Origin: Dehalococcoidia bacterium
Lineage (GTDB): Bacteria > Chloroflexota > Dehalococcoidia > DSTF01 > WHTK01
DNA length: 64,000 bases
Direction: 5' to 3'
Assembly (NCBI GenBank): GCA_965247485.1
Contig: OZ252017.1
Coordinates: forward strand, 771,192-835,191
Under the pieces are notes generated by a model that was not told the origin of the DNA, did no database searches, and saw only the letters and a program-made list of their open reading frames with translations. Within the stretch, counting starts at the first letter, position 1, and each line of letters starts with the position of its first letter. The position numbers and the translations under genes are program-made. Shown piece after piece: positions 18,870-55,008 of the stretch.

Positions 18870-20213
18870 ATGACAATCGCTTATCGAGACGAGGAAATGC
18901 TGCGCATGGTCGACCCCGCGACCGGAACCGTCGACCGCCGCATGTTTGCCGAGCAGGATCTGTACGAACTCGAACTCGAGCGCATCTTTGCCCGGGCCTG
19001 GAACTTTATTGCCCATGACTCGCAAATCCCTAACCCCGGCGATTTCTTTATGACTTTCATCGGCGAGGATCGCGTGATCTGTGTGCGCGACAACGATGGC
19101 AACCCTCAGGTGCTGGTAAACACCTGCCGCCATCGCGGCAACGCGATCTGCCGCGCCGAGGAGGGTCACGCCACCTCGTTTATGTGCACCTACCACGGTT
19201 GGACCTACGACCTCAAGGGCGCCCTGGTCGGTGTGCCCGGCTTTAAAGAAGTCTACCACGAGGAGCTCGACCGCGAAAACTGGGGCTTGATCAAGGCCGC
19301 CCAGGTCGAGACCTACAAAGGTTTTGTCTTTGCCACCATGGACCCAGCGGCACCCACGCTTGGCGAATTCCTCGGCGGCGTCGGTCGTATGGGGCTCGAC
19401 TTGATCGCCGAGCGGGGCGATATCCAGGTCGTTCCCGGCATCCAGAAATACACGATCCCTTGCAACTGGAAGCTGGCCGTGGACAACGTCTACGACTACT
19501 ACCACCCCCAGCTCAGCCACGCCTCTTCGACAATGTCCGGCTACGGCTTCCGCCGTAACGCCACCGGCAACGTCGCCACCGGCGACAGTTCCGGGCTGAT
19601 GCGCGACCACATGGTCCTGCTGGGCGACTACGGCCACGGCATCGGTGGTCCCTTTAGCACACCGGAGACCGACACCGCGATCGCCGGCAACCCCGGTCAG
19701 GACGACTCCTGGCGCGAGCGGCCCGAGGCCCAGAAGGCCCTTGGACCGGCCGGGATCAAGTCGCGCGGCCACCCCAACATCTTCCCCAACCTCTGGGTTG
19801 GCAGCGGCCCTCAGGTCAGCCTGCGCCACCCCAAAGGCCCCGGCATTACAGAAATCTGGTGGTTCACCCTGATCGATCCGTCAAAAGAAGCCGAGCTCTA
19901 CAACACGCAGAAAAGCCGCGCCAATCACACCTTTGGCCCGGCCGGCATGCTGGAGCAGGACGACGGCGAGAACTGGGGTCAGAGCACCCGGGGTATGGTT
20001 GGCAATGTGGCCCAGAAGTTCCCGCTGCACTACGCGATGGGTAAGGGTCACGGCGAAATCATCGACGACGAGGGCAGCCCACCACGGATCGAGACCCATG
20101 TAAACGAGCACGCCCAGTTCTGGTTCTACCGCGGCTGGGCCGATTGGATGGCCGCACCAACCTGGGACGATCTCCGGGCTAACCGCACGCCGCCGCCGAA
20201 AGATTACGCTTAG
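18870..20213 (+). CDS. Rieske non-heme iron ring-hydroxylating oxygenase, large (alpha) subunit, paralog 1
   Basis: Rieske CRHRG..H-x17-CTYHGW. Mononuclear Fe motif NWKLAVDNVYDYYHPQLSH (D-x2-H-x4-H). GGAGG sits 9 nt upstream of the ATG at 18870. 447 aa. Confidence 0.9.
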   Translation: MTIAYRDEEMLRMVDPATGTVDRRMFAEQDLYELELERIFARAWNFIAHDSQIPNPGDFFMTFIGEDRVICVRDNDGNPQVLVNTCRHRGNAICRAEEGHATSFMCTYHGWTYDLKGALVGVPGFKEVYHEELDRENWGLIKAAQVETYKGFVFATMDPAAPTLGEFLGGVGRMGLDLIAERGDIQVVPGIQKYTIPCNWKLAVDNVYDYYHPQLSHASSTMSGYGFRRNATGNVATGDSSGLMRDHMVLLGDYGHGIGGPFSTPETDTAIAGNPGQDDSWRERPEAQKALGPAGIKSRGHPNIFPNLWVGSGPQVSLRHPKGPGITEIWWFTLIDPSKEAELYNTQKSRANHTFGPAGMLEQDDGENWGQSTRGMVGNVAQKFPLHYAMGKGHGEIIDDEGSPPRIETHVNEHAQFWFYRGWADWMAAPTWDDLRANRTPPPKDYA

Positions 20214-20237
20214 TAGGGTCGATACGAGAAAAGAAAA

Positions 20238-20272
20238 AGGCCGGGGTGCCGCGCTCAGCCCGGCTTTTTTCT
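20238..20272 (+). terminator. intrinsic terminator after Rieske-1 (GGCCGGGG...GCCCGGC plus TTTTTTCTTTTT)
   Basis: GC stem then a long T tract, 25 nt past the stop. Confidence 0.6.
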
Positions 20273-20403
20273 TTTTGATCCTTTTTTGATCCTTCGGCGC
20301 ATGGGGGGTTTTTGACCTTGGGGTCAAGTTCCCCCGCTCGGGAACACGCAGGGGCACGACTGGCTAAAGCCGAACAAGAAAAGCCCGCGGTGACCGGCGG
20401 CCG
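20271..20403. mobile_element. MITE-like repeat, copy X (intergenic)
   Basis: Begins with tandem TTTTTGATCC x2. Body TTCGGCGCATGGGGGGTTTTTGACCTTGGGGTCAAGTTCCCCCGCTCGGGAACACGCAGGGGCACGACTGGC... is about 90% identical to the reverse complement of 20683-20811. Confidence 0.5.
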
Positions 20404-20405
20404 GT

Positions 20406-21072
20406 CTACTCCAGCCTCAGATACCAGACAAACTGCACCTCGCCGGCGTCGGGCGGCTGATAGGCGAAGCGATTGACGAGGCCGAGTTCACAGCCCATGG
20501 CGGCGTAAAAGCGGCAGGCCGCGACATTGACGTTTTGGGTCTCGATTTTGAGCAGGCGACAGCCGCGTTCTTTGGCCCACTCGACGGCGGCGCTGAACAG
20601 AGCCTTGCCGACACCGCCCTGGCGCGCCTCCGACGAAACCCGGATATCCCACAACTCGGCTATATCTTTGCGACCCTCAAGAGGATCAAAAAGGGAAAAG
20701 CCGGCCGCGGGCTTCTCTTGTCCGGCTTTGGCGAGTCGTGCCCTTAGGTGTTCCCGGGCGGGGGAACTCGGCCCCGAGGTCAAAAACCGCCCATGCGCCG
20801 AAGGATCAAAAAAAGTCATCGTAGGCCGCCAGCACCCCCCACCTCGAGGTGTCCCAGCGGTTTCCCCAGTCCGTGGGGCTATCGCCTACTTTGGTGTCGT
20901 AATCTTTGGTGTATGAAGGCGTCACCGGTTCCAAAACCAGGCTGAAACCACCGGCCTCGGCGTCAAACGGGCCCAGCCGGAACCGCGACTCTACCTGAAA
21001 GGCGATCGAAACGCTTTTGTAGGCCGCAAACGTCGCGGCATGCGGCGGTTCTTCAACAATCGTCAGGCTCAT
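20406..21072 (-). pseudogene. GNAT family N-acetyltransferase, paralog 2, disrupted by a ~120-bp repeat insertion
   Basis: N-part (20806-21072) and C-part (20406-20819) match GNAT-1 and are in different frames. About 19 codons (SLRVGGAVVAFDTDDVWF) are replaced by repeat-derived sequence. Confidence 0.75.
20683..20811. mobile_element. MITE-like repeat, copy Y, inserted in GNAT-2 and flanked by 10-bp direct repeats GGATCAAAAA
   Basis: Direct repeats at 20683-20692 and 20802-20811. Interior is about 90% identical in inverse orientation to 20292-20403. Contains internal GC hairpins. Confidence 0.55.
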
Positions 21073-21161
21073 GAACGCATTTTAGCTACGTGGGTACGAG
21101 TCGCGTAGACCACGTGTTGAAGGCCGCGTTTACGGAAGGCTTTTCGGGTGGAGTGGTTTCA

Positions 21162-21256
21162 TCTCGCCGAGCGAGCGGCAGCGAGCGAGGTGCGGGCCGG
21201 CCCCGCAGGTTGCTGGGAGGGTTAAATATCCGGGGTGGGGCGACGGTCCTGTACTC
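21162..21256. repeat. composite repeat locus C: box1 TCTCGCCGAGCGAGCGGCAGCGAGCGAGGTG, GC palindrome GCGGGCCGGCCCCGC, box2 GGGTTAAATATCCGGGGTGGGGCGACGG
   Basis: Matches loci A and B. Lies in the divergent GNAT-2 / Rieske-2 intergenic region. Confidence 0.55.
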
Positions 21257-21374
21257 AACTGGCCCAACAAGTCGCAACCGATCCCTTCCTTGTTTCGCCT
21301 CTTCGCGAGGCAACAGCGCGGTTCCGCGGCTCGCTCGAGGTGCCAACCTAGTGCCGCTCTCGCAACGCGGTACG

Positions 21375-21450
21375 GGGTACTACCCATTGCCGATCCCACC
21401 CCGCGGCGCTACTATTAAAGCGCTTTTTACTGCGTTTAATTGCTCCCGAC
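21375..21450. promoter_or_regulatory. conserved upstream element E2 preceding Rieske-2, containing AT-rich inverted repeat ATTAAA-N17-TTTAAT
   Basis: Shares GGTACTACCCATTGCCGATCCCACC with E1. TTTAAT sits about 58 nt upstream of the ATG and is a possible -10. Confidence 0.35.
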
Positions 21451-21496
21451 CGGCTCCGCTAGGCGGCGTCAAGTCCAAAAATCGGAGGTTTCTCTC

Positions 21497-22840
21497 ATGA
21501 CAATCGCCTACCGAGACGAAGAGATGCTGCACATGGTCGATCCGGAAACCGGCACCGTGGACCGGCGCATTTTCGCCGAGAAGGATATCTACGAGCTGGA
21601 GCTGGAGCGCATCTTCGCCCGCGCCTGGAACTTTATGGGCCACGACTCCCAGATCCCCAACCCGGGTGACTTTTTCATGTCCTTCATCGGCGAGGACCGC
21701 GTCATCCTGGTCCGTGACAACGACATGCAGCCGCAAGTCCTGGTCAACACCTGCCGGCACCGCGGCAACGCCATTTGCCGGGCCGAGGAAGGTCACGCCA
21801 CCTCTTTCATGTGCACCTACCACGGCTGGACCTATGACCTGAAAGGCGCGCTGGTCGGTGTGCCCGGCTTCAAGGAGGTCTACCACGAGGAGCTCGACCG
21901 GGAAAACTGGGGCTTAATCAAGGCCGCCCACGTCGATAGCTACAAGGGCTTTATCTTCGCCACCATGGACCCGGAAGCGATCGGTCTCAACGAGTTTCTC
22001 AACCCGGTCGGCCGCATGGGCCTCGACATGATGGCCCACAAGGGCAACCTGACGGTGATCGGCGGTATCCAGAAGTACACGATCCCCTGCAACTGGAAGC
22101 TGGCCGCCGACAACGTCTACGACTGGTATCACCCGCAGCTCACCCACGCCTCGTCCTCGATGTCCGGCTACGGCTTCCGCCGCCCCGGCCTCAGCAACAT
22201 CGCCTCCGGCCAGGGCAACTCGCTTCTGCGCGAGCACATGGTGGTGCTCGGCGATTACGGCCACGGCATCAGCGGCCCGCGTCAGGTCGAGGGCCAGGAG
22301 AGCCCGCTGGCGGGCAGCCCGGGGCAGGACGACTCCTGGCGGGAAACCCCCGAGGCCAAGGCGGCCCTGGGACCGGACGCCATGCGCTCCCGCGGCCACT
22401 CTCACATCTTTCCCAATTGCTGGGTTACGGCCGGCGACCAGATCAGCGTCCGCATGCCCAAGGGGCCGAATAAGACCGAGATCTGGTGGTTCACGCTGCT
22501 GGACCCTGACAAGGATCCGGAGATCTATAACTCCAAGTTCTACCGCGCCAACCACACCTTTGGCCCGTCCGGGATGCTGGAGCAGGAAGACGGCGAGAAC
22601 TGGGGTGAGAGCACGCGAGGAACCCACGGTCTGGCCACCAAGAAGTTCCCCCTGCACTACGCCATGGGCCTCGGCCACGGCGAGGTGCTCGACGACGAGG
22701 GCAGCCCGCCCCGCATCGAAACCACGGTCAATGAGCACGCTCAGTTCTGGCTCTATCGCGGCTGGGCCGACTGGATGTCATCGCCAACCTGGGCCGACCT
22801 GCGCGCCAACCACACGCCACCACCACTCGACAAGGCCTAA
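21497..22840 (+). CDS. Rieske non-heme iron ring-hydroxylating oxygenase alpha subunit, paralog 2
   Basis: About 90% identical by eye to paralog 1 over the N-terminal 150 aa. Same Rieske and Fe motifs. CGGAGG RBS. Confidence 0.9.
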   Translation: MTIAYRDEEMLHMVDPETGTVDRRIFAEKDIYELELERIFARAWNFMGHDSQIPNPGDFFMSFIGEDRVILVRDNDMQPQVLVNTCRHRGNAICRAEEGHATSFMCTYHGWTYDLKGALVGVPGFKEVYHEELDRENWGLIKAAHVDSYKGFIFATMDPEAIGLNEFLNPVGRMGLDMMAHKGNLTVIGGIQKYTIPCNWKLAADNVYDWYHPQLTHASSSMSGYGFRRPGLSNIASGQGNSLLREHMVVLGDYGHGISGPRQVEGQESPLAGSPGQDDSWRETPEAKAALGPDAMRSRGHSHIFPNCWVTAGDQISVRMPKGPNKTEIWWFTLLDPDKDPEIYNSKFYRANHTFGPSGMLEQEDGENWGESTRGTHGLATKKFPLHYAMGLGHGEVLDDEGSPPRIETTVNEHAQFWLYRGWADWMSSPTWADLRANHTPPPLDKA

Positions 22841-22942
22841 GCTTTTTTGATCGTGGGCGCATACAGGTTTTCGACCTCTTGCCCGGGTTCCACCTCACGG
22901 CAGCTGGTTGAAACAGCTGTGACATGAAGAACCAAAGGAAAC

Positions 22943-22975
22943 GGCCGGGCTAAGCCGGGCTTTTTCTTTTTCGAT
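22943..22975 (+). terminator. degenerate terminator-like GC element plus T tract after Rieske-2 (homolog of 20238-20272)
   Basis: ACGGCCGGGCTAAGCCGGGCTTTTTCTTTTT. Stem symmetry is imperfect. A degenerate MITE-like segment at 22842-22900 precedes it. Confidence 0.35.
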
Positions 22976-23001
22976 CCTTTTTTAATCCAGAGGCGGATGG
23001 G

Positions 23002-23318
23002 CCCCATGCCCGACCCACCGACGCTAATTACCCCCGCTTGCTCAGCAAGCGTACTGAGCCAAGCTACGCCCCATGCCCGACCCACCGACGCTAATTACGC
23101 CCGCTTGCTCAGCAAGCGCACTGAGCCAAGTTACGTCCCATACCCGACCCGCCGACGCTATCTACCCCCGCTTGCGCAGCAAGCGTACTGAGCCCCCATG
23201 CCCGACCCGCCGACGCTATTTACCCCCGCTTGCGCAGCAAGCGTACTGAGCCAAGTTACGCCCCATGCCCGACCCGCCGACGCCAATTACCCCCGCTTGC
23301 GCAGCAAGCGTACTGAGC
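23002..23318. repeat. tandem array of 5 copies of a ~67-bp unit, each with internal palindrome GCTTGC(T/G)CAGCAAGC
   Basis: Units start at about 23002, 23069, 23136, 23194 and 23261 (CCCCATGCCCGACCC(A/G)CCGACGCTAATTACCCCCGCTTGCTCAGCAAGCGTACTGAGCCAAG.TACG). There are no unique spacers. The overlapping ORF 22997-23191 is judged spurious. Confidence 0.8.
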
Positions 23319-23334: not shown

Positions 23335-24057
23335 GTGTCAGTTGACACCGGCATCCGGCCACGACAAGATTTCAGCAGCTTGATTGAAGACTCGCACTCA
23401 TCGACAAAGACCGCCGCGCTGGTAGTCGCGCGGCTGCGAAGCGCCCGCGGCACCAGCTTCGCTGCCCTAACACTGGCCGCCTGCGCCACCCTGCTTCTGG
23501 CGGCTTGCTCCGCTTCCGACGAATCCGCGACCGATGCCGCGCCAACCAGCACCTTGGGCCTCGCTCCAACTCAAGCGGCTACCGCGGCCGCCATCGCCAG
23601 CCCAGCTCCGCCAACCCCGCGCTCAGCCGCCGACACCTCTCGTGACCTGACCGGCTTCCCTTTTTCAACCAGCGACCTGCGCCAGGCTCTCGAAATCGCC
23701 GGTTACTCGTTTTCCGGTGTGGAGGAAAGAGCGCCTATTTGCCCCCAAACCTCGGTTCCGGAGTTGCCCTTCTGGTCCCCCAACCTCGCCGGCAACGACT
23801 CTGGGCCGATCCTCGTGCTCTGGGTTTACCCGAGCTTCGAGGCCCTGGAGGCCGACTGGGAAGCCGAGCCCGGAGCGCCACCCAAGCCGCTTTTGGACGG
23901 CTGCGAATTGCCCACCGGTTTCGTTTATTGGAACCAGAACCTGGTTTTGGTCTTCGAGACCTGGTCCAGCCTCGGCGTGGAATCGCCGGTTGACATCGAT
24001 GGCCGCATCCCCAGCGAGCATCCGGCGGTTACCGCCTTCCTCTCGATGACTCCTTGA
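23335..24057 (+). CDS. putative lipoprotein (signal peptide with lipobox LLLAAC), Thr/Pro/Ala-rich linker
   Basis: ARLRSARGTSFAALTLAACATLLLAACSAS. True start uncertain. Confidence 0.45.
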   Translation: MSVDTGIRPRQDFSSLIEDSHSSTKTAALVVARLRSARGTSFAALTLAACATLLLAACSASDESATDAAPTSTLGLAPTQAATAAAIASPAPPTPRSAADTSRDLTGFPFSTSDLRQALEIAGYSFSGVEERAPICPQTSVPELPFWSPNLAGNDSGPILVLWVYPSFEALEADWEAEPGAPPKPLLDGCELPTGFVYWNQNLVLVFETWSSLGVESPVDIDGRIPSEHPAVTAFLSMTP

Positions 24058-27535: not shown

Positions 27536-28870
27536 ATGACAACGACTTTTAAGAACGAAGACATGCTGCGAATGGTCAACCCTGAAACCGGTCTCGTAGA
27601 CCGCCGAATCTTTGCCGATGCCGATATCTACGAGCTGGAGCTGGAGCGCATCTTTGCCCGCGCCTGGAACTTCATGTGTCACGATTCGCAGATCCCCAAC
27701 CCTGGCGACTTCTTCCAGACCGTCATTGGCGAGGACCGCGTCATCTGTGTTCGTGACAACGATGGCATGCCTCAGGTCCTGGTCAATACCTGCCGCCACC
27801 GTGGCAACGCCATCTGCCGTGCCGATGAGGGCCACGCCACCTCTTTCATGTGCACCTACCACGGCTGGACCTACGACCTCAAAGGCGATTTGGTCGGCAT
27901 GCCCGGCTTCAAAGAGGTCTACCACGAAGAACTCGACCGCGAAAACTGGGGCCTGATCAAGGCGGCGAAAGTGGAAACCCACAAGGGTTTCATCTTCGCC
28001 ACCATGGACCAGCAAACGCCCGGCCTGGAGGAGTACCTCGGCGATGCCGGCCGCATGGGCCTGGCGCTTTTGGCCGAACGCGGCGATGAGATGGTGGCCA
28101 TCGCTGGCATCCAAAAGTACACCATCCCCTGCAACTGGAAGTTTGCCGTCGACAACGTCTGGGACTACTACCACGGCCTAACCCACATGTCGGCGCAGAT
28201 GTCTGGCTTCAGCAGTCAGGCGCGCCGCAACGTCGGCGAGTTCACGCCCGACCATCTCGTTTTTCTCGGCGAATACGGCCACGTGCTCGGCGGCCCCAGG
28301 ATCACCGAGCGAACCCAGCAGCGCTTCACCCCGGCGACGGAATCGCTGCGGTCGGCACAGGACGAGGCCTGGCGCGAGCGGCCCTCGGCCAAGGAGGCTC
28401 TGGGACCCGTTGGCACCCAATCCCGCGGCCACACCAACATCTTCCCCAACATGTGGATCGCCGCCAACCAGGTCAGCATGCGCATGCCCAAGGGTCCCGG
28501 CCAAACCGAGATCTGGTGGTGGACGATTCTCGACAAAAACCAGGCGCCCGAGACGCGCAAAGGCCAGACCTACCGCGCCGCTCACACGTTCGGACCCGCC
28601 GGCATGCTGGAACAGGACGATGGTGAGAACTGGGGCCAGAGCACCCGCGGCATGGTTGGCAGCTTCAGCCGCGACTTCCCCTTGAACTACTCCATGAGTC
28701 TAGACCGCGGCGAGATCATCAATGACGAGCTCAGCCCGCCGCGTATCGAGACCCAAACCAACGAACATCCGCAACTCTGGCACTACCGAGCCTGGTCGGA
28801 ATGGATGGCGTCCTCCACTTGGGATGAGCTAAAAGCCACCCACTCGCCGGTGCCGCCTGACAAGGTTTAG
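27536..28870 (+). CDS. Rieske non-heme iron ring-hydroxylating oxygenase alpha subunit, paralog 3
   Basis: CRHRGNAICRADEGHATSFMCTYHGW. NWKFAVDNVWDYYHGLTH. AAGGAG RBS. Start set at 27536 (MTTTFKNEDML). Confidence 0.9.
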   Translation: MTTTFKNEDMLRMVNPETGLVDRRIFADADIYELELERIFARAWNFMCHDSQIPNPGDFFQTVIGEDRVICVRDNDGMPQVLVNTCRHRGNAICRADEGHATSFMCTYHGWTYDLKGDLVGMPGFKEVYHEELDRENWGLIKAAKVETHKGFIFATMDQQTPGLEEYLGDAGRMGLALLAERGDEMVAIAGIQKYTIPCNWKFAVDNVWDYYHGLTHMSAQMSGFSSQARRNVGEFTPDHLVFLGEYGHVLGGPRITERTQQRFTPATESLRSAQDEAWRERPSAKEALGPVGTQSRGHTNIFPNMWIAANQVSMRMPKGPGQTEIWWWTILDKNQAPETRKGQTYRAAHTFGPAGMLEQDDGENWGQSTRGMVGSFSRDFPLNYSMSLDRGEIINDELSPPRIETQTNEHPQLWHYRAWSEWMASSTWDELKATHSPVPPDKV

Positions 28871-28894: not shown

Positions 28895-28933
28895 GGCGTA
28901 TCAGCCCAGGGCTGATACGCCCCCTTCGTTTTG
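28895..28933 (+). terminator. intrinsic terminator after Rieske-3: perfect 13-bp stem GGCGTATCAGCCC / GGGCTGATACGCC plus CCCTTCGTTTTG
   Basis: Seen directly, 25 nt past the stop. Confidence 0.55.
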
Positions 28934-29023: not shown

Positions 29024-29835
29024 TTAGGAACTCGATCGCCGTTTGTTCCATGATCGGCGCGATGCCGCCGACCAGCCGCCGCGTACCGCCGTAGTAAATA
29101 AACATCCGCGCATGCGGCGCAAGTGGTAGGCCTCATGAAGAAACCTGATCAGCACGGTGTTGGCATTGTCCATCTGTGCCAGCAGCAACGGCATTGTCAT
29201 CTTTGGCAAAAGCTCATGTAGCCGGTTCAGCGTGCGAACCTCACCGTTGGCAACATACTGCGCCACCAATCGATAAGCATCTTCGTGACCAGGTCGAGTT
29301 AGCCGGGCCCACATCTCGTTCACCATTTCGTCGGTGACCATCTGGCCCATATGGCGCCCCATGTCTTCCTCAAGCGCCTCTTTGGTGGGCATCTGGAAGT
29401 TGGCAACGAAAGCTGGCGCTTCCAGGTTCAGACCTGGGGCGTCGAGCAAGATCATCCGCCTGATCCGATCCGGGTTGTTGGCCGCGAAGCGAGAGCTGAC
29501 CCAGCCACCAATGCTGTAGCCAAAAACATCGATGTCCTGGAGGTCGAGCGCGTCGCAGAAACCACTCACCGCGTCCTCCAGATCGGGAAGAAGGGACCTT
29601 CCTTCGCCGCTTCGGACAGTCCCCAACCCGGAAGATCCAGGGCATAAACATGCGAAAAAGCGCTAAAGGCATCGATGTGGGGCAAGAATTGGTCGGCGGA
29701 GAGTGAAAAGCCCATGCCATGTAGACACAAAAGCGGCCGTCCTTCGCCCTTTTCTATGTAGCGAATACGATGGCCGGCGACATCGATATATTGGTCCGGA
29801 ATATCCGCTCTCAATGACATCCTCTTGCCCCTCAC
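29024..29835 (-). pseudogene. alpha/beta hydrolase fold protein, frameshifted
   Basis: N-part 29566-29835 (HGMGFSLSADQF...YALDLPGWGLS). Nucleophile-elbow part 29024-29626 (FGYSIGGW). The two are in different frames. The C-terminus also looks aberrant. Confidence 0.55.
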
Positions 29836-30056: not shown

Positions 30057-31358
30057 TTGAACCGCAGGCAATCGTCCCCTTCATCAGCCGCGGTGCTGCT
30101 CAACCGGCGCCTGCCTTTTTTCTACGGCTGGGTAGTCGTCGCCGTCGGCTTCCTCTCCTCGTTCATGATGGGCGCCACCTCTTTCTGGGCCCTGCCGATC
30201 TTTGTCGGTGCCATGAACGACGACACCGGCTGGTCCCACACCAGCATCCTCGCGGGCCTGTCGGTTCACTTCCTCATGGGGGCCGTGGGAGTCTCAGTCG
30301 CCGGTCGCTTCGCGGACCGCAAAGGCGGCGCCGCCCGAGTGCTCCTGGTCGGTATCTTCATTGCCGCCGGCGCCTTGTTCTCGCTGCGCTGGGTCGACTC
30401 GCCGGCCCAATTCATCGTTCTCTACGGTGTCGTAGCCGGCGGCGGCACCAGCGCCCTGCGTGTTCTGCAATCCACGCTGGTCTCCAAATGGTTCATCGCT
30501 AAGCGGGGCATCGCTGTCGGGGTTTCCACCAGCGGCGGAGCCGTTTCCGGAATCCTAATGGTTCCCCTGATCACGTTCTTGATCAGTGAACTCGGCTGGC
30601 GCGGCGCCTGGAGCGCAGTCGCCGTCATCCTCATGCTCCTGCTTTTACCAATGGTCCCGTTAGTGGTGCGTTCTCCCGAGGACCTTGGCCTCGAGCCGGA
30701 CAACGGCGCGCGGCCAGTCTCTTCACGGCCCACCGCTGATTCCGAGCACAGTTTTACGGTCCCAGAGGTGGTTCGCACCCGCACGTTCTGGTTCACGCTG
30801 GTTGCGGTACTGATCGGCAACTTCGCGCTCCAGACCAATACAACGGTAATGGTCCCGTACTTCGAGGACATTGGCTTTTCTACCGCCACGGCCGCCAGCG
30901 CGATCGCGCTTTACGGCTTCATTGCCCTCGGCATGCGCTTTGTCTGGGGAACCATAGCGGACCGTTTTGGTGTTCGCAGAGCCGTGCTGGTGCAAGGCTG
31001 TATCACGGCCCTCGGCGCCCTCTTACTCCTGCAGATTAGCGGCACTGCAAGCCTCTATCTGGTGACCATGTACCAGGGTGCCACCCAGAGCGCCTTCCCT
31101 CTGCTACAGGTTCTGGTCTGGCCCGCATTCTTCGGGCGAGCCCACGTCGGCTCCATCGTTGGTGTCGGCCAGCCGCCCACCGTGCTAGCGGGGGCGGCTG
31201 GACCCCTGGTCGTCGGTTTTCTCTTCGATCAAACCGGCAACCACGAACCGACGCTCTGGCTGCTGGTTGCGATTTGGCTAGCGACGGCAGCCGTTATGTA
31301 TACCATCAAGCCGCTTGGGCGACCGAGAAGTGCTGACAAGAGCCGATCCTCTGACTGA
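30057..31358 (+). CDS. MFS transporter
   Basis: 12 predicted TM helices. GRFADRKG-type loop motif. 433 aa. Confidence 0.75.
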   Translation: MNRRQSSPSSAAVLLNRRLPFFYGWVVVAVGFLSSFMMGATSFWALPIFVGAMNDDTGWSHTSILAGLSVHFLMGAVGVSVAGRFADRKGGAARVLLVGIFIAAGALFSLRWVDSPAQFIVLYGVVAGGGTSALRVLQSTLVSKWFIAKRGIAVGVSTSGGAVSGILMVPLITFLISELGWRGAWSAVAVILMLLLLPMVPLVVRSPEDLGLEPDNGARPVSSRPTADSEHSFTVPEVVRTRTFWFTLVAVLIGNFALQTNTTVMVPYFEDIGFSTATAASAIALYGFIALGMRFVWGTIADRFGVRRAVLVQGCITALGALLLLQISGTASLYLVTMYQGATQSAFPLLQVLVWPAFFGRAHVGSIVGVGQPPTVLAGAAGPLVVGFLFDQTGNHEPTLWLLVAIWLATAAVMYTIKPLGRPRSADKSRSSD

Positions 31359-31474: not shown

Positions 31475-32785
31475 ATGACCTACTCCAACCAAGAAGTCTG
31501 GAACATGGTCGATACCAACAAGGGACTGATCGACCGCCGCGTGTTCGGTGACGAAGCGCTCTATCAGATGGAGCTAGAGCGGATCTTCGCGCGCTGCTGG
31601 CTGTTCCTGGCCCACGAGTCGGAAGTGGCAAATCCCAACGACTTCATCACCACCTACATGGGTGAGGACCCGGTCTTGGTCACACGGGACGGGAACGGTG
31701 AACTGCACGCCTTCCTAAACGTCTGCCGCCACCGCGGCTCGCGCGTTTGCCTGGTGGATTCCGGCAACGCCGGTTCCTTCATGTGCAATTACCACGCCTG
31801 GGCCTATAGCTCCGACGGCCGCCTCGAGGGTGTGCCGCGGCTGCACGACGGCTACTACGATGAGTTAAACACCAGCGAATGGGGCCTGTTTCCGGTGGCC
31901 CAACTGGAGACCTATCACGGCATGATTTTCGCCACCTTTGACTCCGAGGCGCCGCCCTTGGTCGAATACCTCGGTGACTTCGCCTGGTATCTCGATTCCT
32001 GGCTGGACCGCACCGAGGGTGGCGTTGAGGTCATCCGCGGCATCCGCCGTTGGGTGCTCGACTGCAACTGGAAGGTCGCGGCGGAGAACTTCGTTGGCGA
32101 CGGCTACCACGGCCAGCCAACCCACCAGTCGGCGTTCAAAGTCGGCATCTCGGGCGGCACCCGGCCGGATACGACCATCGGCATACCGGCCAGAACCCGA
32201 TACGGCCACGGTCTGGGAGGCTCGGCTATCAACGACCCAACCCAGAGTGCCGCCGCCTTTGCGCGGCTGCCCGGAATCGACCCCGTCGTAGACGAGTACA
32301 CACAGCGAGTCCTGCCCGAAACTCGCGAGCGCCTCGGCGAAAGGGCCGACATCTACTTCCCCGTACACGGGACCGTTTTCCCAAACCTCTCGATCCAGCC
32401 CAACTTCGCCTCGATGCACGTCTGGCACCCGCGCGGACCCGGACGGGTGGAAGTACGTGATTACACAATCGTCGAAAAAAACGCCCCCGACGACGTCAAG
32501 GCGCGGATAAACTTCCAGTGCATGTACCGGCAAGGGCCGGCCGGCACCTGGGAGCAGGACGATTCCGACAATTGGCAGCAGGTGACGGCGGCCGCACGCG
32601 GCACCGTTTCACGGCGTTTGCCGATGAACTACCAGATGGGTTTGGGGCACGACGCGGAGCATGACGTTCTGCCCGGCCAGCTTTCCTACGGACCCGGCGA
32701 CCACAATCAGCTGAATATGTATCGCTGGTGGGCCGAGTTCATGACCATGCCCACCTGGACGGACCTGCGGACAAAACTCGCCTAA
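31475..32785 (+). CDS. Rieske non-heme iron ring-hydroxylating oxygenase alpha subunit, paralog 4 (most divergent)
   Basis: CRHRGSRVCLVDSGNAGSFMCNYHAW. ENFVGDGYHGQPTH (D-x2-H-x4-H). GGAGGG RBS. 436 aa. Confidence 0.85.
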   Translation: MTYSNQEVWNMVDTNKGLIDRRVFGDEALYQMELERIFARCWLFLAHESEVANPNDFITTYMGEDPVLVTRDGNGELHAFLNVCRHRGSRVCLVDSGNAGSFMCNYHAWAYSSDGRLEGVPRLHDGYYDELNTSEWGLFPVAQLETYHGMIFATFDSEAPPLVEYLGDFAWYLDSWLDRTEGGVEVIRGIRRWVLDCNWKVAAENFVGDGYHGQPTHQSAFKVGISGGTRPDTTIGIPARTRYGHGLGGSAINDPTQSAAAFARLPGIDPVVDEYTQRVLPETRERLGERADIYFPVHGTVFPNLSIQPNFASMHVWHPRGPGRVEVRDYTIVEKNAPDDVKARINFQCMYRQGPAGTWEQDDSDNWQQVTAAARGTVSRRLPMNYQMGLGHDAEHDVLPGQLSYGPGDHNQLNMYRWWAEFMTMPTWTDLRTKLA

Positions 32786-34855: not shown

Positions 34856-36169
34856 ATGACTCAGCAAATTGAGCGGCCGGCCGACTTCCGGGACATGGTT
34901 GACTACGAAAAAGGCACCGTCGACCGGCGCGGCTTTGTCGATCCAGACATCTACGAGTTGGAACTGGAGCGCATCTTCGCTCGCGCCTGGAATTTCATGG
35001 CCCACGACTCGCAGATCCCCAACCCTGGCGATTTCTTCATGACCTTCATCGGCGAGGACCGCGTCATCGTCGTGCGCGACAACGACGGCAACCCTCAGGT
35101 TTTGGTCAACACCTGCCGCCACCGCGGCAACGCCATCTGCCGTGCTGATGAGGGCCACGCCACCTCATTTATGTGCACGTATCATGGCTGGACTTATGAC
35201 TTGAAGGGCAACCTCGTCGGCGTGCCCGGCTTCAAGGAAGTCTATCACGAGGAGCTTGACCGCGAAAACTGGGGCCTAATCAAGGCCGCCCAGGTCGACA
35301 GTTACCAGGGCTTCATTTTCGCCAACATGGACCCGGAAGCAGTCGGCCTAGATGAGTACCTCGGTGAAACTGGCAAGATCGGCATCGGCACAATCGCCGC
35401 TCGCGGCGATGTTGCCGTTGCGCCCGGCATCCAGAAATACGTTATGCCCTGCAACTGGAAATTGCCCACAGACAACGGTGTCGGCGATTGGTACCACCCT
35501 TTCATCAGTCACGCGTCCGCACGAATGATTCCTTGGCAAAGGCCGGCTCTGCCAACTCCCGCGGCTGCAAACAACCCCTTTGCCGTGCGACACCTGGTTG
35601 TTCTGGGGGAGTACGGTCACACGATCAGCGGACCGCGCGCGACACCGGCGATGCTGGAGCAGGATCCCTGGCGGGAGAGCCCGAAGGGCAAGGAACTGCT
35701 GGGCCCCGTGGGTATCAAAGCGCGCGGCTTCCCGGGAATATTCCCCAACGTTTGGATAGTAAATAACCAACTGTCCTTGAGGCTGCCCAAAGGCCTCGGC
35801 AAGTGCGAGATCTGGTTCTTCACCTTCGTCGACCAAAATCTGCCTAAAGAACAACAGCAGCAGGTGGTCTTCCGTTCGATCCATACGTTTGGGCCGGCTG
35901 GGATGCTCGAGCAAGATGACGGCGAGAACTGGAATCAGGCCGGCAAAGGCATGGCCGGCACGATCGGCAGACGCTTTCCCCTCAACCATTCCCTCGACCA
36001 CAAGCTGGCCGAGGTGATCAACGACGAAACCGGGCCGTCGCACGCCGAGACCACCGTCAGCGAGCACGCCCAACTCTGGCTGCACCGCGCCTGGAGCGAG
36101 TGGATGGCCGCTGAAAGCTGGGCCGACCTTAAGGCCAACCATTCCACCATGCCCACCGACGTTATCTGA
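34856..36169 (+). CDS. Rieske non-heme iron ring-hydroxylating oxygenase alpha subunit, paralog 5
   Basis: CRHRGNAICRADEGHATSFMCTYHGW. NWKLPTDNGVGDWYHPFISH. 437 aa. Confidence 0.9.
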   Translation: MTQQIERPADFRDMVDYEKGTVDRRGFVDPDIYELELERIFARAWNFMAHDSQIPNPGDFFMTFIGEDRVIVVRDNDGNPQVLVNTCRHRGNAICRADEGHATSFMCTYHGWTYDLKGNLVGVPGFKEVYHEELDRENWGLIKAAQVDSYQGFIFANMDPEAVGLDEYLGETGKIGIGTIAARGDVAVAPGIQKYVMPCNWKLPTDNGVGDWYHPFISHASARMIPWQRPALPTPAAANNPFAVRHLVVLGEYGHTISGPRATPAMLEQDPWRESPKGKELLGPVGIKARGFPGIFPNVWIVNNQLSLRLPKGLGKCEIWFFTFVDQNLPKEQQQQVVFRSIHTFGPAGMLEQDDGENWNQAGKGMAGTIGRRFPLNHSLDHKLAEVINDETGPSHAETTVSEHAQLWLHRAWSEWMAAESWADLKANHSTMPTDVI

Positions 36170-43184: not shown

Positions 43185-43339
43185 TCTCTGCCTGTGCCTT
43201 TCTGTTCCTGGCCAACGGGCGGGTCCTGGCTGAAAAAACCCAAGCCCGTCCTGGTTACAATCGTGGCCTTAGAGTAGTCTCCTTGCGCCCCTCTGGGCTA
43301 GACAGCATCTCGGCAGAAACTTCGAGGCAGAAAAACAAC

Positions 43340-47735: not shown

Positions 47736-47810
<75 letters not shown>

Positions 47811-48017: not shown

Positions 48018-48662
48018 GTGGCAAGGATGCTATTACAAGCTGTTTTCCGGTTTCAATCGCGTCTGCTCGCGGCCGCCCAGGCAGTCTGGAAGCAACTTCC
48101 AGCACCCGGTTTAGGCGAGAGCGGCGTCGCCACGCTGCAACTCATTCTCCTCTCCACGCTTGGCGGCACAACGCTGCTCGCTACCGCGGTTCTGACGGAA
48201 ACCGAGGATGTGCTCGATCAATTCGCTGACATAGTGAGCGCCGGTGTCGAACGCGTCAGTGGCAATCTCGAAGTTCGAGGCAGCATCATCGCAACCGCGC
48301 CAGACAACGAGATCGACACGATTCAATTCCAGCTCGGCCTCTTCGGCCACGGTTCCGTTCTCCTGGACTCAGCAGCTTTAGATCAGGAGCGGCTAACGAT
48401 TACCTACCGTGACGCCTCCGGCTTCGCCCCGCTGTTGCCCTACGAGGTCACCTTTCTGGTTGGCGATGGTGACAATCTGCTGGAGCCGGGCGAGCTTGTT
48501 CTGATCACCCTTCACGCGTCCGACATCCGGACTGTAGCGCCCGAGGCGGAGCTTTCAGCTAACTCACGCTTCACATTGGAGTTGCTGCCATCCGTGGGCG
48601 GCATTGTTGAGCTTGGCCGCACATTGCCGCCGATCTTGCAGCCGGTAATGAGTCTGCACTGA
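48018..48662 (+). CDS. hypothetical exported protein with N-terminal hydrophobic segment (pilin/archaellin-like?)
   Basis: TLQLILLSTLGGTTLLATAVLTE then a beta-rich domain. Start uncertain. A perfect 8-bp hairpin overlaps the start. Confidence 0.35.
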   Translation: MARMLLQAVFRFQSRLLAAAQAVWKQLPAPGLGESGVATLQLILLSTLGGTTLLATAVLTETEDVLDQFADIVSAGVERVSGNLEVRGSIIATAPDNEIDTIQFQLGLFGHGSVLLDSAALDQERLTITYRDASGFAPLLPYEVTFLVGDGDNLLEPGELVLITLHASDIRTVAPEAELSANSRFTLELLPSVGGIVELGRTLPPILQPVMSLH

Positions 48663-50795: not shown

Positions 50796-52049
50796 ATGCT
50801 GAACATGTTTGCCTCGCTTCAATACCCGGGCTTCAGAATCCTTTGGACCACAAACGTCCTCGGCGGCATCTCCCAGTGGGCCATGATGGTCGGCAGAGCC
50901 TGGCTTGTCTTCGATCTGACGGAATCAGCCCTTGCAGTGGCAGTGATTACGTTTTCCGGATTTATCGGCTCGTTCCTTATGGTTCCGCTTGGAGGGGTCC
51001 TCGCCGACCGCTGGGATCGCCGCAACCTGATGCTATGGAGTTTTGTGTTGCCGCTGCTGATCAACATGTTATTAGCGGCAATCACAATCTCAGATGCCGT
51101 CTTGGTGTGGCACGTTGTTGCCCTGTCTTTCCTTGCCAACCTGACCCGCTCGGTCGGCTTGCCGGCCAGCCGTGCTCTCGCTCCGAGCCTGGTTCCACCG
51201 GAACAATTGCTGAACGCCGTCTCATTGGCCAGCGTCGCAATGCGGGGACCCCGGCTGGTAGGACCGTTGCTGGCCGTACCGCTGTTGGCAACGATCGGTG
51301 TCGAAGGCATCTTTGTTGCCTCCGCGGCGGTTTATGGTCTCTCGGCCTTGAACCTCTTGCGTCTGAAGGCACCGGAGCAAGAGCGTGCTGCTGCTACTTC
51401 AACAACGCTGGTCAGCGAATTTTCTGAAGGAATGCGATTCGTTCTGCTTTCAACCCCGGTCAACCTCGTCGTCGGCGTCGTTGCCGTCCACTGCGCCTTA
51501 ACGATGTCATTCGACCCGCTGCTGCCAACTATGGCCAAACTGGAGCTCGGCGGCAGCGGTGTCCTGTTTACCTACCTTTTCATGGCCGTGGGAGCCGGCG
51601 GCTTGATTGGAACCTTGGGCACGGCCAACATTCGCGGCGAGGCGGCGCGCGGCAATTACCTGCTGGTGATGGGCCTGCTCAGCGGAGTTTCACTTGTGCT
51701 TATCGGTGTCTCCGGGTCATTGCTTCCTGTACTGATCGCGCTGGGATTCGCCGGTGTCAGTCAATCCGCCTTTATGGCCCTGACCGAAGCGATGATCCTG
51801 GAAAGCGTGCCCGACCGCATGCGCGGCCGAGCGATGGGTGTGTACTTCATGATCGCCGTTGGCGTCATGGCCCTGGCCGGGCTGAGCATTGGCTATCTTG
51901 GTGACGTCTGGGGAGTCCGCGAGGTCTTTCTCAGCCTCGGCGTTGTCTTCACGCTGGCGATGGCGGCAAGCGCCGGGCTCAGCGGGCGGCTCCGTCGGGT
52001 CTACCGCTTCGGTTCTGTAACCGCCGACACCGAGGCAGCGGTGGCCTAG
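50796..52049 (+). CDS. MFS transporter
   Basis: 12 TM. VLADRWDRR motif. 417 aa. Confidence 0.75.
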   Translation: MLNMFASLQYPGFRILWTTNVLGGISQWAMMVGRAWLVFDLTESALAVAVITFSGFIGSFLMVPLGGVLADRWDRRNLMLWSFVLPLLINMLLAAITISDAVLVWHVVALSFLANLTRSVGLPASRALAPSLVPPEQLLNAVSLASVAMRGPRLVGPLLAVPLLATIGVEGIFVASAAVYGLSALNLLRLKAPEQERAAATSTTLVSEFSEGMRFVLLSTPVNLVVGVVAVHCALTMSFDPLLPTMAKLELGGSGVLFTYLFMAVGAGGLIGTLGTANIRGEAARGNYLLVMGLLSGVSLVLIGVSGSLLPVLIALGFAGVSQSAFMALTEAMILESVPDRMRGRAMGVYFMIAVGVMALAGLSIGYLGDVWGVREVFLSLGVVFTLAMAASAGLSGRLRRVYRFGSVTADTEAAVA

Positions 52050-52282
52050 GCCCGGTTGCCCCGAGCACTCTTCTGTTACTGCAGAGGCGAACTCTCATCG
52101 TTCTCCAACCTTGCTGCCTTAGAGAATCAATCGGCTCCTGCGTTAACGAGCCGATACTATAGTTGAGCAATTTCTTAATAAAGGATGGTTGACCTGCCAA
52201 CAATCATTTATCATCCTTCTCAGGCAGCGCGCCGCTTTTAATGAGGCCGTCTGACACTTGACAAAAATGGAGCACACTCGCA

Positions 52283-53607
52283 ATGACCATCGCCTACAAA
52301 AATCAAGAAATGCAACTGATGGTAGACCTGGAAAAGGGCACGGTTAACCGCCGCATCTTCTCCGACCAGGACATCTACGAGCTGGAGTTGGAACAGATCT
52401 TTGCCCGGGCCTGGAACTTCATGGCCCACGACTCCCAGATCCCCAACCCCGGCGACTTTTTCATGACCTTCATCGGCGAGGACCGCGTCATTGTCGTCCG
52501 CGACAACGACGGCGATGCTCAGGTCCTGGTAAACACCTGTCGCCACTGCGGCAATGCCATCTGCCGCGCCGAAGAGGGCCACGCCACCTCGTTCATGTGC
52601 ACCTACCACGGCTGGACCTATGACCTGAAAGGCGCGCTCGTCGGAGTGCCCGGCTTCAAAGAGGTCTACCACGAGGAACTCGACCGCGAAAACTGGGGCT
52701 TAATCAAAGCAGCGCAGGTCGACACCTACAAAGGCTTCATCTTCGCCAACATGGACCCCGAAGCACCAAACCTTGACGAATACCTCGGCGAGGTCGGCAA
52801 GATCTGCGTCGACATGATCGCCATGAAGGGCGACATGCAGATGGTCGGTGGTGTGCAGAAATACACGATCCCCTGCAACTGGAAATTTGCCACCGACAAC
52901 GTCTGGGACTATTACCACTCCCGCGTCACCCACGGCTCGGCCTTCATGACCGGCATCTCCTTCACGCGCGGCCCCTCGCCCAACCTCGCGGCAACTCCCG
53001 CCACAGTTCAACGGCCAAACCTGGCCATTCTCGGCGATACGGCCACGCCCTTGCCGGGCCCATGTACATGCCGCCAGCCGGTCCCGGAGCACCCCAGCCG
53101 CTGTTTGACGAAAGCTGGCGCGAACGGCCGGAAGTCAAGGCTGCGCCGGGCGTCGCTACACGGGCAGCCGACCACCCGCACGTCTTCCCGAATTTCTGGG
53201 TGACTGGATTTCAGGTCAGCCTACGCATCCCCAAGGGCCCCAGCGCCACCGACATCTGGTGGTTCACCTTCATTGACAAGGATGGTCAGGAAAATGACCG
53301 CGTGATCGAGCGAGCCAAGACGATCTTTGGCCCGGCCGGCATGCTTGAGCAGGACGATGGCGAAAACTGGGGACAAAGCACCCGCGGCGCCAAGGGCTCC
53401 GTCACCCAAGCCTACCCCCTGAACTACTCCATGGGCCTCGGTCGCGGTGAAGTCATCGACGACGAGATCGGTCCGCCCCACATCGAAACTATTTTCAATG
53501 AGCACGCACAGCTTTGGCATTACCGGGCCTGGTCAGAATGGATGAGCGCGTCTGATTGGCCAGAATTGAAGCAAACTCACTCGCAGGTGCCGCTGGATCG
53601 AGTCTAG
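52283..53607 (+). pseudogene. Rieske oxygenase alpha subunit, paralog 6, single-nt frameshift near 53040
   Basis: Rieske motif CRHCGNAICRAEEGHATSFMCTYHGW (note H->C in the first box). LAILGDTATPLPG should read LAILGDYGHA..; GGCGATACGGCC lacks one T. The C-terminal part is 53062-53607. Confidence 0.75.
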
Positions 53608-53673
53608 TCAGAGGATCGGGAATAATCCGAAGCTATCGCTCATGACCCACAAAGAGATTGGAGAACCTCCCTC

Positions 53674-55008
53674 ATGACCATCGCTTATAAGAATGAAGAA
53701 ATGGCGCAAATGGTGGACGCCGAAACCGGCACCGTAAACCGCCGCATTTTCGCCGAGCAAGAGATCTATGAGCTGGAGTTGGAACGCATCTTCGCCCGCG
53801 CCTGGAACTTCATGGCTCACGACTCGCAGATCCCCAACCCCGGCGATTTCTTCATGACCTTCATCGGCGAGGATCGCGTGATTTGTGTAAGTGACAACGA
53901 CGGCAATCCTCAGGTTTTGGTCAACACCTGCCGCCACCGAGGCAACGCAATCTGTCGCGCCGAGGAAGGCCAAGCCACCAGCTTCATGTGCACCTACCAT
54001 GGCTGGACCTATGACCTAAAGGGATCTCTGGTTGGCGTGCCCGGTTTCAAGGAGGTCTATCACGAGGAACTCGACCGCGAAAATTGGGGCCTAATCAAGG
54101 CAGCGCAGGTCGACACCTACAAAGGCTTCATCTTCGCCAACATGGACCCTGAAGCCCCGGCTTTGGATGAATTTCTCGGTGACATCGGCCACGTGGGACT
54201 AGACCTGCTCGCCGAGCAAGGGGAGCTATACGTTCTTTCGGGCATTCAGAAGTACGTTATCCCATGCAACTGGAAGCTGGCGGTGGACAATGTCTACGAC
54301 TGGTACCACGTTGGCGTCACCCACGCCTCCTCTCTTCAGTCCAACGCTGGGCGCCAACCTGGAACCCCACAGAGTCCAACAGCTTCAATCACAGTCCCTC
54401 AAATGGTGATGCTCGGCGATTACGGCCACGCGATCAGCGGCCCTAGAATCGTTCCAGACCAGCCGCAGCCAAACCCACCCAACCCGGCCGCCAATGACAG
54501 CTGGCGGGAGAAGCCCGAGGCGAAAAGAGCGCTGGGCCCGGTTGGCATTAGGTCACGCGGCCATCCCAATATTTTCCCAAATCTCTGGGTCGCCTCGAAC
54601 GTAAACCAGCTCAGCCTGCGCATACCAAAGGGACCGCACAAGACGGAAATCTGGTGGTTCTCCTTGATTTACCGTGAAGGACCGCCGGAGCTAATCAAGG
54701 CCCAAATTTCGCGCGCCAACCATGTGTTCGGTCCATCAGGCCGACTCGAACAGGACGACGGCGAAAACTGGGGCGAAAGCACGCGCGCGACCCTCGGTGT
54801 TGTCAGCCAGCGCTATCCCCTGCATTACGCCATGAACCTCGGCCTTGGCGACGTGATTGACGACGAGTCCGGACCGCCTCACATCGAAACCGCTGTCAAC
54901 GAGCACGCCCAGCTTTGGCACTACCGTGCCTGGGCTGACTGGATGGCGGCGGACAACTGGGATGCACTTAGGGCCAACCACTCGGAGGTGCCGCGCAACA
55001 AGGCCTAG
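53674..55008 (+). CDS. Rieske non-heme iron ring-hydroxylating oxygenase alpha subunit, paralog 7
   Basis: CRHRGNAICRAEEGQATSFMCTYHGW. NWKLAVDNVYDWYHVGVTH. 66-nt gap after paralog 6. 444 aa. Confidence 0.9.
   Translation: MTIAYKNEEMAQMVDAETGTVNRRIFAEQEIYELELERIFARAWNFMAHDSQIPNPGDFFMTFIGEDRVICVSDNDGNPQVLVNTCRHRGNAICRAEEGQATSFMCTYHGWTYDLKGSLVGVPGFKEVYHEELDRENWGLIKAAQVDTYKGFIFANMDPEAPALDEFLGDIGHVGLDLLAEQGELYVLSGIQKYVIPCNWKLAVDNVYDWYHVGVTHASSLQSNAGRQPGTPQSPTASITVPQMVMLGDYGHAISGPRIVPDQPQPNPPNPAANDSWREKPEAKRALGPVGIRSRGHPNIFPNLWVASNVNQLSLRIPKGPHKTEIWWFSLIYREGPPELIKAQISRANHVFGPSGRLEQDDGENWGESTRATLGVVSQRYPLHYAMNLGLGDVIDDESGPPHIETAVNEHAQLWHYRAWADWMAADNWDALRANHSEVPRNKA

Follow-up and report, generated by a model that had tools for sequence, protein, structure and literature searches.

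The stretch of DNA considered here (the window) is 64 kb of contig OZ252017.1 from a member of the Dehalococcoidia (Chloroflexota), with a G+C content of about 60%. It contains seven open reading frames (ORFs) for alpha subunits of Rieske oxygenases, designated R1 to R7, all on the + strand and all starting exactly where an earlier reading of the sequence (the original prediction) had placed them. ORFs, Pfam matches and ribosome-binding sites agree at each start, a GGAG-like ribosome-binding site being present 6–10 nt ahead of the ATG in all seven genes. Here, we focus on the ancestry of these genes and on their missing partners, and we consider it probable that they represent an old, partnerless family of alpha subunits from the alpha3beta3 lineage, served by redox partners encoded in trans. 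The seven genes are as follows, with lengths in amino acids (aa).

18870..20213, + strand: R1 alpha subunit, 447 aa; PF00355 and PF00848; opposite-strand genes on either side
21497..22840, + strand: R2 alpha subunit, 447 aa; nearest paralog R1, at 76% aa identity
27536..28870, + strand: R3 alpha subunit, 444 aa; H-x3-H iron-ligand spacing; opposite-strand genes on either side
31475..32785, + strand: R4 alpha subunit, 436 aa; member of a separate, deeply branching subfamily
34856..36169, + strand: R5 alpha subunit, 437 aa; opposite-strand genes on either side
52283..53607, + strand: R6 alpha subunit, split in the window into ORFs 52283–53203 and 53062–53607; 441 aa and intact in other strains
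53674..55008, + strand: R7 alpha subunit, 444 aa; tandem pair with R6 across a 66-nt gap

Iron ligands and family assignment

Both domains of the alpha subunit, PF00355 (Rieske) and PF00848 (Ring_hydroxyl_A), are matched above the curated cut-offs in all seven proteins, PF00355 with scores of 51–65 bits against a cut-off of 20.3. The Rieske ligands take the form C-R-H-x17-C-x2-H in every copy, in keeping with the predicted CxH-x17-CxxH box. The mononuclear-iron motif D-x2-H-x4-H, which had been claimed for all seven, is found in six; R3 reads D-x2-H-x3-H. An EQ[DE]D motif is present in 7/7, and we take its second Asp to be the equivalent of Asp362 of naphthalene dioxygenase (NDO), a carboxylate ligand of the mononuclear iron. 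The H-x3-H spacing (YYHG[LI]TH; R3 residues ~209–216, window 28160–28183) is a trait of a subclade and not an error, because it is common to 13 related paralogs (R3 and 12 others from Dehalococcoidia). On careful alignment no iron ligand is missing: the bridging Asp, both His residues and the Asp of EQ[DE]D are kept in all seven.

The best NCBIfam model is HcaE (NF042946), matched over its full length with 290–398 bits by the six intact proteins (311 for R1) and with 79 and 237 bits by the two fragments of R6. Since these scores are far under the equivalog cut-off of the model (830 bits), R1–R7 are relatives of HcaE and not its orthologs, and its substrate cannot be transferred to them. The best matches among PDB structures are HcaE (8k0a, 292 bits with R1), BphA1 (1uli), TodC1 (3en1), CumA1 (1wql), other biphenyl dioxygenases and NDO. 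The top 19 span residues ~5–440 and all are alpha3beta3 enzymes by the table of a 2025 review, in which the HcaE, BphA1, TodC1, CumA1 and NDO structures are listed as such (PMC12445004). The window proteins resemble HcaE/HcaF, BphA1/A2, TodC1/C2, CumA1/A2 and NDO over their full length (35–40% identity, 258–361 bits); the order of the domains, the Rieske ligands, the bridging Asp and the 2-His-1-carboxylate site are all shared. The window genes differ in lacking neighbours for a beta subunit, a ferredoxin, a reductase and a diol dehydrogenase.

The original prediction had taken the seven for a family of alpha-only oxygenases. They do appear to be encoded without a beta subunit, as are CntA, Stc2, CARDO, KshA and DMO, but the likeness to such enzymes is limited to the Rieske domain, and their catalytic domains are not specifically related. 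The similarity to CntA and Stc2 is confined to residues ~20–220 (72–91 bits), the match to GbcA also ends at about residue 220, and R1–R7 match no other catalytic-domain Pfam family. The assignment to an alpha-only family therefore fails, because the full-length kin are alpha3beta3 enzymes and the alpha-only enzymes match the Rieske domain only; in addition, the nearest outside relatives keep a beta gene. Comparison with characterised alpha subunits groups R1–R7 with beta-dependent enzymes and places them in the toluene/biphenyl/HcaE lineage.

Partner genes in the window and elsewhere

A genome scan for homologs gave 78 loci, 44 in Dehalococcoidia and 34 in other lineages. The closest species-representative genome is the Dehalococcoidia metagenome-assembled genome (MAG) CBDCMQ01, referred to below as the sister MAG; this agrees with an earlier guess at the Chloroflexi, and the pattern fits the SAR202 literature discussed further on.

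That no partner genes lie within 64 kb is confirmed by every search made of the window, and none had been missed nearby. A hidden Markov model (HMM) of the beta subunit was seeded with 16 beta ORFs found downstream of homologs in other phyla; six such downstream ORFs, five of them in the seed, were checked against Pfam and all are PF00866. Even at E ≤ 10 this HMM has no match when the window is translated in all six frames, and phmmer searches of the window with HcaF, HcaC, HcaD and HcaB of E. coli are likewise empty. Scans of the window for Rieske, plant-type, 3Fe/4Fe and rubredoxin motifs return only the seven alpha subunits, one zinc-ribbon protein and two chance matches, one of which is antisense to a hydrolase gene, while Pfam scans of the ~58 other ORFs of the window detect no beta subunit, ferredoxin or reductase. 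A cryptic partner in cis was also considered and rejected: the ORFs 20527–20916, 21090–21500, 23335–24057 and 36284–36601 have no Pfam match, and no consistent set of ORFs lies 3' of the homologs across the 44 Dehalococcoidia loci. The segment that contains ORF 36284–36601 does not align to the sister MAG.

For the genome as a whole the claim of missing partner subunits does not hold, as a 6.0-Mb contig of the same species carries both this locus and an alpha'–beta pair at a distance of ~1.25 Mb. The paired beta subunit of the sister MAG, used as query in a protein search, leads to P0122, an 89% identical protein from the same species as the window. P0122 (178 aa) starts 16 nt after a 452-aa alpha' at ~1.317 Mb of ENA contig ERZ25074053:ctg471349_20x_l (6.01 Mb), and this contig also holds the HpcH–Ldh_2–MFS genes of the window at 2.564 Mb, with 99.83% nucleotide identity. 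The genome of about 6 Mb contains at least one alpha'–beta pair, about 1.25 Mb from the seven-gene locus. The alpha' of the pair shares only 39–41% identity with the window paralogs. Ferredoxin and reductase genes were not found around the alpha–beta pairs of this species and related genomes, where only ABC transporter, hydrolase, transposase and MFS/MarR genes occur. An argument that the window species has no beta subunit, drawn from the contig field of the protein search, was dropped because that field missed copies of R1 on 3-Mb contigs.

Across the 44 Dehalococcoidia loci there are ~70 alpha genes and three beta genes, and no beta gene adjoins a member of the expanded clade. Two of the three follow a divergent alpha' (~450 bits on the alpha HMM versus 650–850 for the expanded clade). 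The third, a candidate for a shared beta subunit, is an orphan PF00866 gene on contig_9 of the sister MAG (locus L024, 13490–14014), flanked by alpha/beta-hydrolase and ABC-permease genes. In the 399 kb of the sister MAG that were sampled, 46 alpha genes or fragments stand against two beta genes, an alpha:beta ratio of ~20:1. A further neighbour of interest on contig_9 is an HcaB-like cis-dihydrodiol dehydrogenase gene (L002, 9032–9847; 229 bits) directly 5' of one expanded-clade alpha gene, and because of this association at least some expanded-clade alpha subunits are probably true dioxygenases.

The 34 loci from other lineages belong to Alpha- and Gammaproteobacteria, Myxococcota, Binataceae, Microthrixaceae and Thermoflexaceae, and their alpha subunits are 47–57% identical to R1. 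A PF00866 beta gene lies directly 3' of the alpha gene in 33 of them, usually followed by a short-chain dehydrogenase (SDR) gene. The alpha–beta–SDR operons in MAGs of Parvibaculum, Pseudomonadales, Steroidobacteraceae, Binataceae, Microthrixaceae and Thermoflexaceae (L034–L078) are the closest kin outside the Dehalococcoidia; they differ from the window genes in that beta adjoins alpha and in having one or two copies per locus, not dozens.

These counts bear on an explanation in which the paralogs are ordinary alpha3beta3 enzymes and one or a few beta subunits encoded in trans serve dozens of alpha subunits, the serving protein being either the beta of the alpha'–beta pair or a stand-alone beta such as that of the sister MAG. 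Every characterised relative is alpha3beta3, the nearest homologs keep their beta gene almost without exception, a beta gene is present in the same genome, an orphan without an alpha neighbour exists in the sister MAG, and the alpha subunits have no large indels relative to beta-linked homologs. Set against this are the ~20:1 ratio in the sampled sequence and the position of the species' own beta, 16 nt behind a divergent alpha', which suggests a dedicated pair; a beta subunit also usually co-evolves with its alpha. A shared beta subunit is thus possible, though on the whole we doubt it.

Age, selection and gene layout

Seven further features of the window are needed for what follows.

19167..19292, + strand: near-invariant Rieske-domain block, R1 residues 100–141, HATSFMCTYHGWTYDLKGALVGVPGFKEVYHEELDRENWGLI; equivalents in R2, R3, R5, R6 and R7
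20406..20819, − strand: GNAT acetyltransferase gene, 81% nucleotide identity to the GNAT gene 17368–17955
28895..28921, strand unspecified: hairpin with a 12-bp stem, 25 nt past the R3 stop codon; terminator-like
30057..31358, + strand: MFS transporter gene (PF07690), 116 nt 5' of R4
32931–33749: rhodanese gene, 145 nt 3' of R4
50796..52049, + strand: MFS_3 transporter gene (PF05977), 233 nt 5' of R6; arrangement kept in four other assemblies
53030..53046, + strand: site of a 1-nt deletion in R6, CTCGGCGATACGGCCAC in the window versus CTCGGCGAATACGGCCAC in four other assemblies

Among R1, R2, R3, R5, R6 and R7 protein identity is 60–76% overall and 81–91% over the first 160 residues. The predicted N-terminal similarity of ~80–90% is thereby reproduced, with R3 included, and R4 stands apart as had been noted, being 36–39% identical overall to the other six and forming a separate deep clade in the tree. 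The original prediction had read the similarity as a recent lineage-specific expansion. Besides the N-terminal identity, a recent burst of duplications within an alpha-only family, possibly with gene conversion, could draw on the adjacency of R1/R2 and of R6/R7, and on the duplicated GNAT gene as a sign of local origin for the R1/R2 pair. The synonymous divergence (dS) of paralog pairs is, however, 0.7 to >1.5 in the first 160 residues, as saturated as elsewhere in the gene, and in the 42-residue block of the six window paralogs 31% of third codon positions differ versus 3.5% of residue comparisons (96.5% protein identity). Contig_7 of the sister MAG is collinear with 7.1–40.3 kb of the window, and five of the seven paralogs are thus syntenic in a species only 75–89% identical at the nucleotide level: orthologs of R1–R5 occur there in order, with 83–90% nucleotide identity and protein identities of 95% (R1), 95% (R2), 87% (R3) and 96% (R5). 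Save for an R1/R2(/R7) group, the tree joins the window copies to their sister-species orthologs and not to one another, and beta-linked alpha subunits from outside the Dehalococcoidia interleave with Dehalococcoidia copies. Since, in addition, CntA and Stc2 match only the Rieske domain, a recent burst in an alpha-only family is very improbable. The expansion remains lineage-specific and is not recent, because dS is saturated and R1–R5 have syntenic orthologs in the sister species; it is ancient and kept by selection.

Gene conversion or recent duplication as the source of the N-terminal similarity was rejected on the same grounds, dS being saturated and third codon positions varying freely. 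The ratio of non-synonymous to synonymous divergence (dN/dS) between paralogs is 0.04–0.13 in the N-terminal 160 residues and 0.2–0.5 in the middle of the catalytic domain, and the similarity is the outcome of purifying selection on the near-invariant block. R1 and R2 themselves arose by duplication of a unit composed of a GNAT gene (−) and an alpha gene (+) (repeat family D12); the two GNAT genes are 81% identical. This duplication is old (dS ~1.1), and the GNAT gene 20406..20819, a remnant of it, is not in the sister MAG.

The copies could instead be decaying relics, non-functional leftovers of broken operons, given that R6 is split in the window, that some sister MAG paralogs contain in-frame nonsense codons and that no pathway genes are close by. 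This is scarcely compatible with a dN/dS of 0.04–0.09 between R1–R5 and their orthologs in the sister MAG (0.05 for R1, 0.04 for R5), intact ligands throughout, conserved ribosome-binding sites and a whole R6 in four other assemblies, and we regard it as highly unlikely. The sister MAG alpha genes in question have TGA, TAG or TAA in frame at conserved Cys, Trp and Tyr positions (L008 16534; L017 13785; L025 10130 and 10337) and are true pseudogenes, which suggests that the family evolves by birth and death.

The frameshift of R6 is real in the window, where a 1-nt deletion gives CTCGGCGATACGGCCAC in place of CTCGGCGAATACGGCCAC. It is private to this contig and does not mark a pseudogene of the species, as R6 is called as an intact 441-aa gene in four same-species assemblies (L083–L086). 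Similar damage is seen in an MFS gene (43118–44699), which is two ORFs in the window and an intact 453 aa in other same-species assemblies, and in a hydrolase gene (29024–29626), with a 200-aa ORF in the window versus 277 aa in those assemblies; a PLP-dependent decarboxylase gene (57789–58965) is probably also split or truncated. Such private indels suggest assembly errors as the simplest cause, with strain-specific mutation as the alternative, and there are effectively seven intact alpha genes.

The gene-splitting indels in R6, the MFS gene and the hydrolase gene could also be taken as a sign that repeat misassembly created or misplaced the copies and lost their partners. The same species is, however, represented in several ENA metagenome assemblies at 99.3–99.9% nucleotide identity, on contigs of 3.0, 3.05, 3.4, 3.6 and 6.01 Mb, and because at least four independent assemblies repeat the order of R1–R6 and their neighbours, the arrangement is not a misassembly. 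The copies are moreover 25–40% apart in protein, too far to be collapsed or confused, and are syntenic in a different species, leaving an artefact the least credible of all explanations. Exact-protein look-ups find R4 (on contigs of >3 Mb), HpcH and DinB in other assemblies; those for R1, R7, the R6 fragment, SRAP, MFS_3, amidase and RidA give no match because of strain-level differences.

Each gene had been described as monocistronic. Flanking opposite-strand genes compel this only for R1, R3 and R5; R4 follows an MFS gene, and R6 and R7 are a tandem pair behind another. The MFS gene 30057–31358, R4 and the rhodanese gene may form one operon; the MFS–R4 block is collinear with the sister MAG (85% nucleotide identity) and occurs in other assemblies too. 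The further claim that several paralogs have their own terminators is not upheld: only R3 is followed by a convincing hairpin, and a scan of the window finds no excess of terminator-like or promoter-like sites over shuffled sequence. Alignment of 170 nt around the seven starts reveals no common upstream motif beyond the ribosome-binding site and start codon, while the upstream regions of R1 and R2 have a loose promoter-like resemblance to each other. By our count, 26 of the other genes of the window are on the + strand and 23 on the −, which gives p ~0.01 for all seven alpha genes being on the + strand, or ~0.04 with each of the two adjacent pairs taken as one; both orientations occur among the paralogs of related genomes.

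The genes around the seven belong, by the Pfam scans, to unrelated families: GNAT acetyltransferases, thioredoxin-like, RidA/YjgF-family, DinB-family and DUF4389 proteins, RNA methyltransferases, an alpha/beta hydrolase, MFS transporters, rhodanese, PurN, XseA/XseB, a UvrD-family helicase, a PHP-domain protein, an APH-family kinase, a malate/L-lactate dehydrogenase (Ldh_2), an HpcH-type aldolase, pyruvate phosphate dikinase, an amidase, MsrB, an SRAP peptidase and others equally unrelated. A scan of the window with Rfam finds a single RNA gene, tRNA-Gly(GCC) at 47736–47810. An intergenic repeat of ~125 nt with the core GGGTTAAATATCCGGGGTGGGG occurs at 13283–13344, 13954–14065 and 21150–21273 (three exact cores versus none expected), one copy lying ~220 nt 5' of R2; it also occurs in loci of the same species and, as one copy, in the sister MAG, and may represent a miniature mobile element or a small RNA. 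A tandem repeat array (23002–23318, period ~58–67 nt), whose copy number apparently differs in another strain (L091), separates R2 from the hypothetical gene 23335–24057. The region 14900–18700 is a strain-variable island, missing or replaced in other same-species assemblies, one of which has a SIR2_2-domain gene there; in the window it includes a 579-aa ORF (15143–16882) with no Pfam match. ORF 48018–48662, conserved in other assemblies, weakly resembles archaeal-type flagellin (PF01917, 27 bits, slightly under the cut-off), which is unusual in a bacterium.

Electron supply, quaternary state and known systems

Conservation is most extreme in the Rieske-domain block. Across 65 Dehalococcoidia paralogs the mean column conservation of R1 residues 101–140 is 0.96–0.98, versus 0.65–0.76 in the beta-linked clade, and clade-specific residues such as FKEVYHEELDRE (R1 125–136) are frequent. 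Because the block is conserved across otherwise divergent paralogs, we infer a shared partner encoded in trans, and a single common interaction partner would explain the conservation. The trans-encoded electron donor raised in the original prediction is supported in this way and by the lack of redox partner genes in cis. In sphingomonad and actinobacterial systems, many oxygenases share one ferredoxin/reductase pair encoded apart, each alpha subunit keeping its own adjacent beta, unlike the window paralogs.

The nature of the donor is hinted at by one position. Lys117 of CumA1 and Arg65 of its beta subunit are critical for docking of the Rieske-type ferredoxin at the alpha/beta boundary and are not conserved where the donor is of another type (PMC9361823). 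The Lys117-equivalent residue is Lys or Arg in HcaE, BphA1, TodC1 and CumA1, whereas R4 has Gly, the other six window paralogs have Thr and the alpha' of the same species has Asn. The difference hints that the donor is not a Rieske-type ferredoxin or that it docks in another geometry, and leaves the use of a beta subunit unsettled. An attempt to trace beta loss through sites that the beta-linked clade conserves and the Dehalococcoidia do not was abandoned, as only six scattered columns qualify and these are uninformative.

In the preferred reading, that of an old partnerless family with redox partners in trans, R1–R7 would be competent catalytic alpha subunits of multicomponent Rieske non-haem-iron oxygenases, belonging to a very large and old birth-and-death family dispersed singly or in pairs among unrelated genes of the ~6 Mb genome. 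Electrons would reach each alpha subunit from redox partners encoded elsewhere, the donor probably docking on the Rieske-domain surface that is near-identical in all copies. The faster-evolving segments of the paralog alignment (residues ~218–250, 262–285, 335–350 and 375–400) are presumably the loops that line or cover the substrate pocket. Because of this correspondence each copy, its pocket loops having diverged, probably oxidises a different aromatic or alicyclic compound, and the MFS transporters encoded 5' of R4 and R6 may bring in substrate. Direct support exists for the family assignment, the conservation of the ligands, purifying selection, the age of the copies, the lack of partners in cis and the presence of a beta gene elsewhere in the genome; we infer substrate diversification, a common donor and the quaternary state.

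As to that state, beta-free function as an alpha3 enzyme has, on the sequence evidence, close to an even chance without quite reaching it, and is slightly more likely than a shared beta subunit encoded in trans, with other arrangements making up the rest; the one beta gene detected in this species is paired with another alpha subunit, the divergent alpha'. A fuller version, in which the copies form a beta-independent clade of alpha3 trimers (possibly of mixed paralogs) whose new, clade-specific and near-invariant surface at R1 100–141 docks a donor of non-Rieske type, is plausible but tentative. Several points tell against the preferred reading. All characterised enzymes of the lineage need a beta subunit, and beta-free function is without precedent here. 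The alpha subunits show no large indel against beta-linked homologs (~51% identity, few gaps), and the sister MAG has a beta gene that stands alone (L024). More beta genes may lie elsewhere in the genome, the counts being those of sampled sequence. The shared electron donor is suggested by conservation only, a ferredoxin or reductase having been found nowhere, and the tree is a neighbour-joining tree with no bootstrap support.

Comparable gene sets are known from SAR202. Genomes of SAR202 group VII contain 1–62 alpha (COG4638) and 1–3 beta (COG5517) genes each, and it was concluded that most such enzymes act without beta (Saw et al. 2020, mBio, PMC6946804); related gene sets occur in Arctic SAR202 (Colatriano et al. 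2018, PMC6123686). The likeness extends to the host class (Dehalococcoidia), to the dozens of dispersed alpha genes beside a mere one to three for beta, to their common annotation as 'phenylpropionate dioxygenase-like large terminal subunit' and to the proposed role in oxidising diverse aromatic dissolved organic matter. The surveys differ in pooling several Rieske subfamilies, mostly annotated as the phthalate, phenoxybenzoate or carbazole types that are natively alpha-only, and are without locus-level or evolutionary analysis. The window copies belong specifically to the HcaE/BphA (alpha3beta3) lineage, and a missing beta is hence less expected. The host may belong to SAR202 in the strict sense: the nearest genomes are labelled only 'Dehalococcoidia bacterium', and a 63%-identical homolog of the beta subunit is labelled 'SAR202 cluster bacterium'.

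The seven-gene locus is a well-resolved instance of this published pattern. What is added here is the beta-dependent lineage of the genes, nearest kin that keep their beta, the old age of the copies, the near-invariant block and the alpha'–beta pair 1.25 Mb away. The genomic observation mostly confirms the published surveys, and it is of use chiefly because it opens the beta question to testing. The locus offers an assembly-verified example of the enzyme set proposed for SAR202-like attack on recalcitrant aromatic organic matter, and its near-invariant block is a handle for finding the shared redox partner. If the paralogs do function without beta, or with one shared beta, the rule of a dedicated small subunit for oxygenases of the HcaE/BphA/NDO type would be overturned. 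The family would then offer simpler scaffolds for biocatalysis. Should the fuller, beta-independent version hold, it would be the first natural beta-less branch of the alpha3beta3 lineage, with a modular design of one docking face and many pockets suited to the oxidation of diverse dissolved organic matter.

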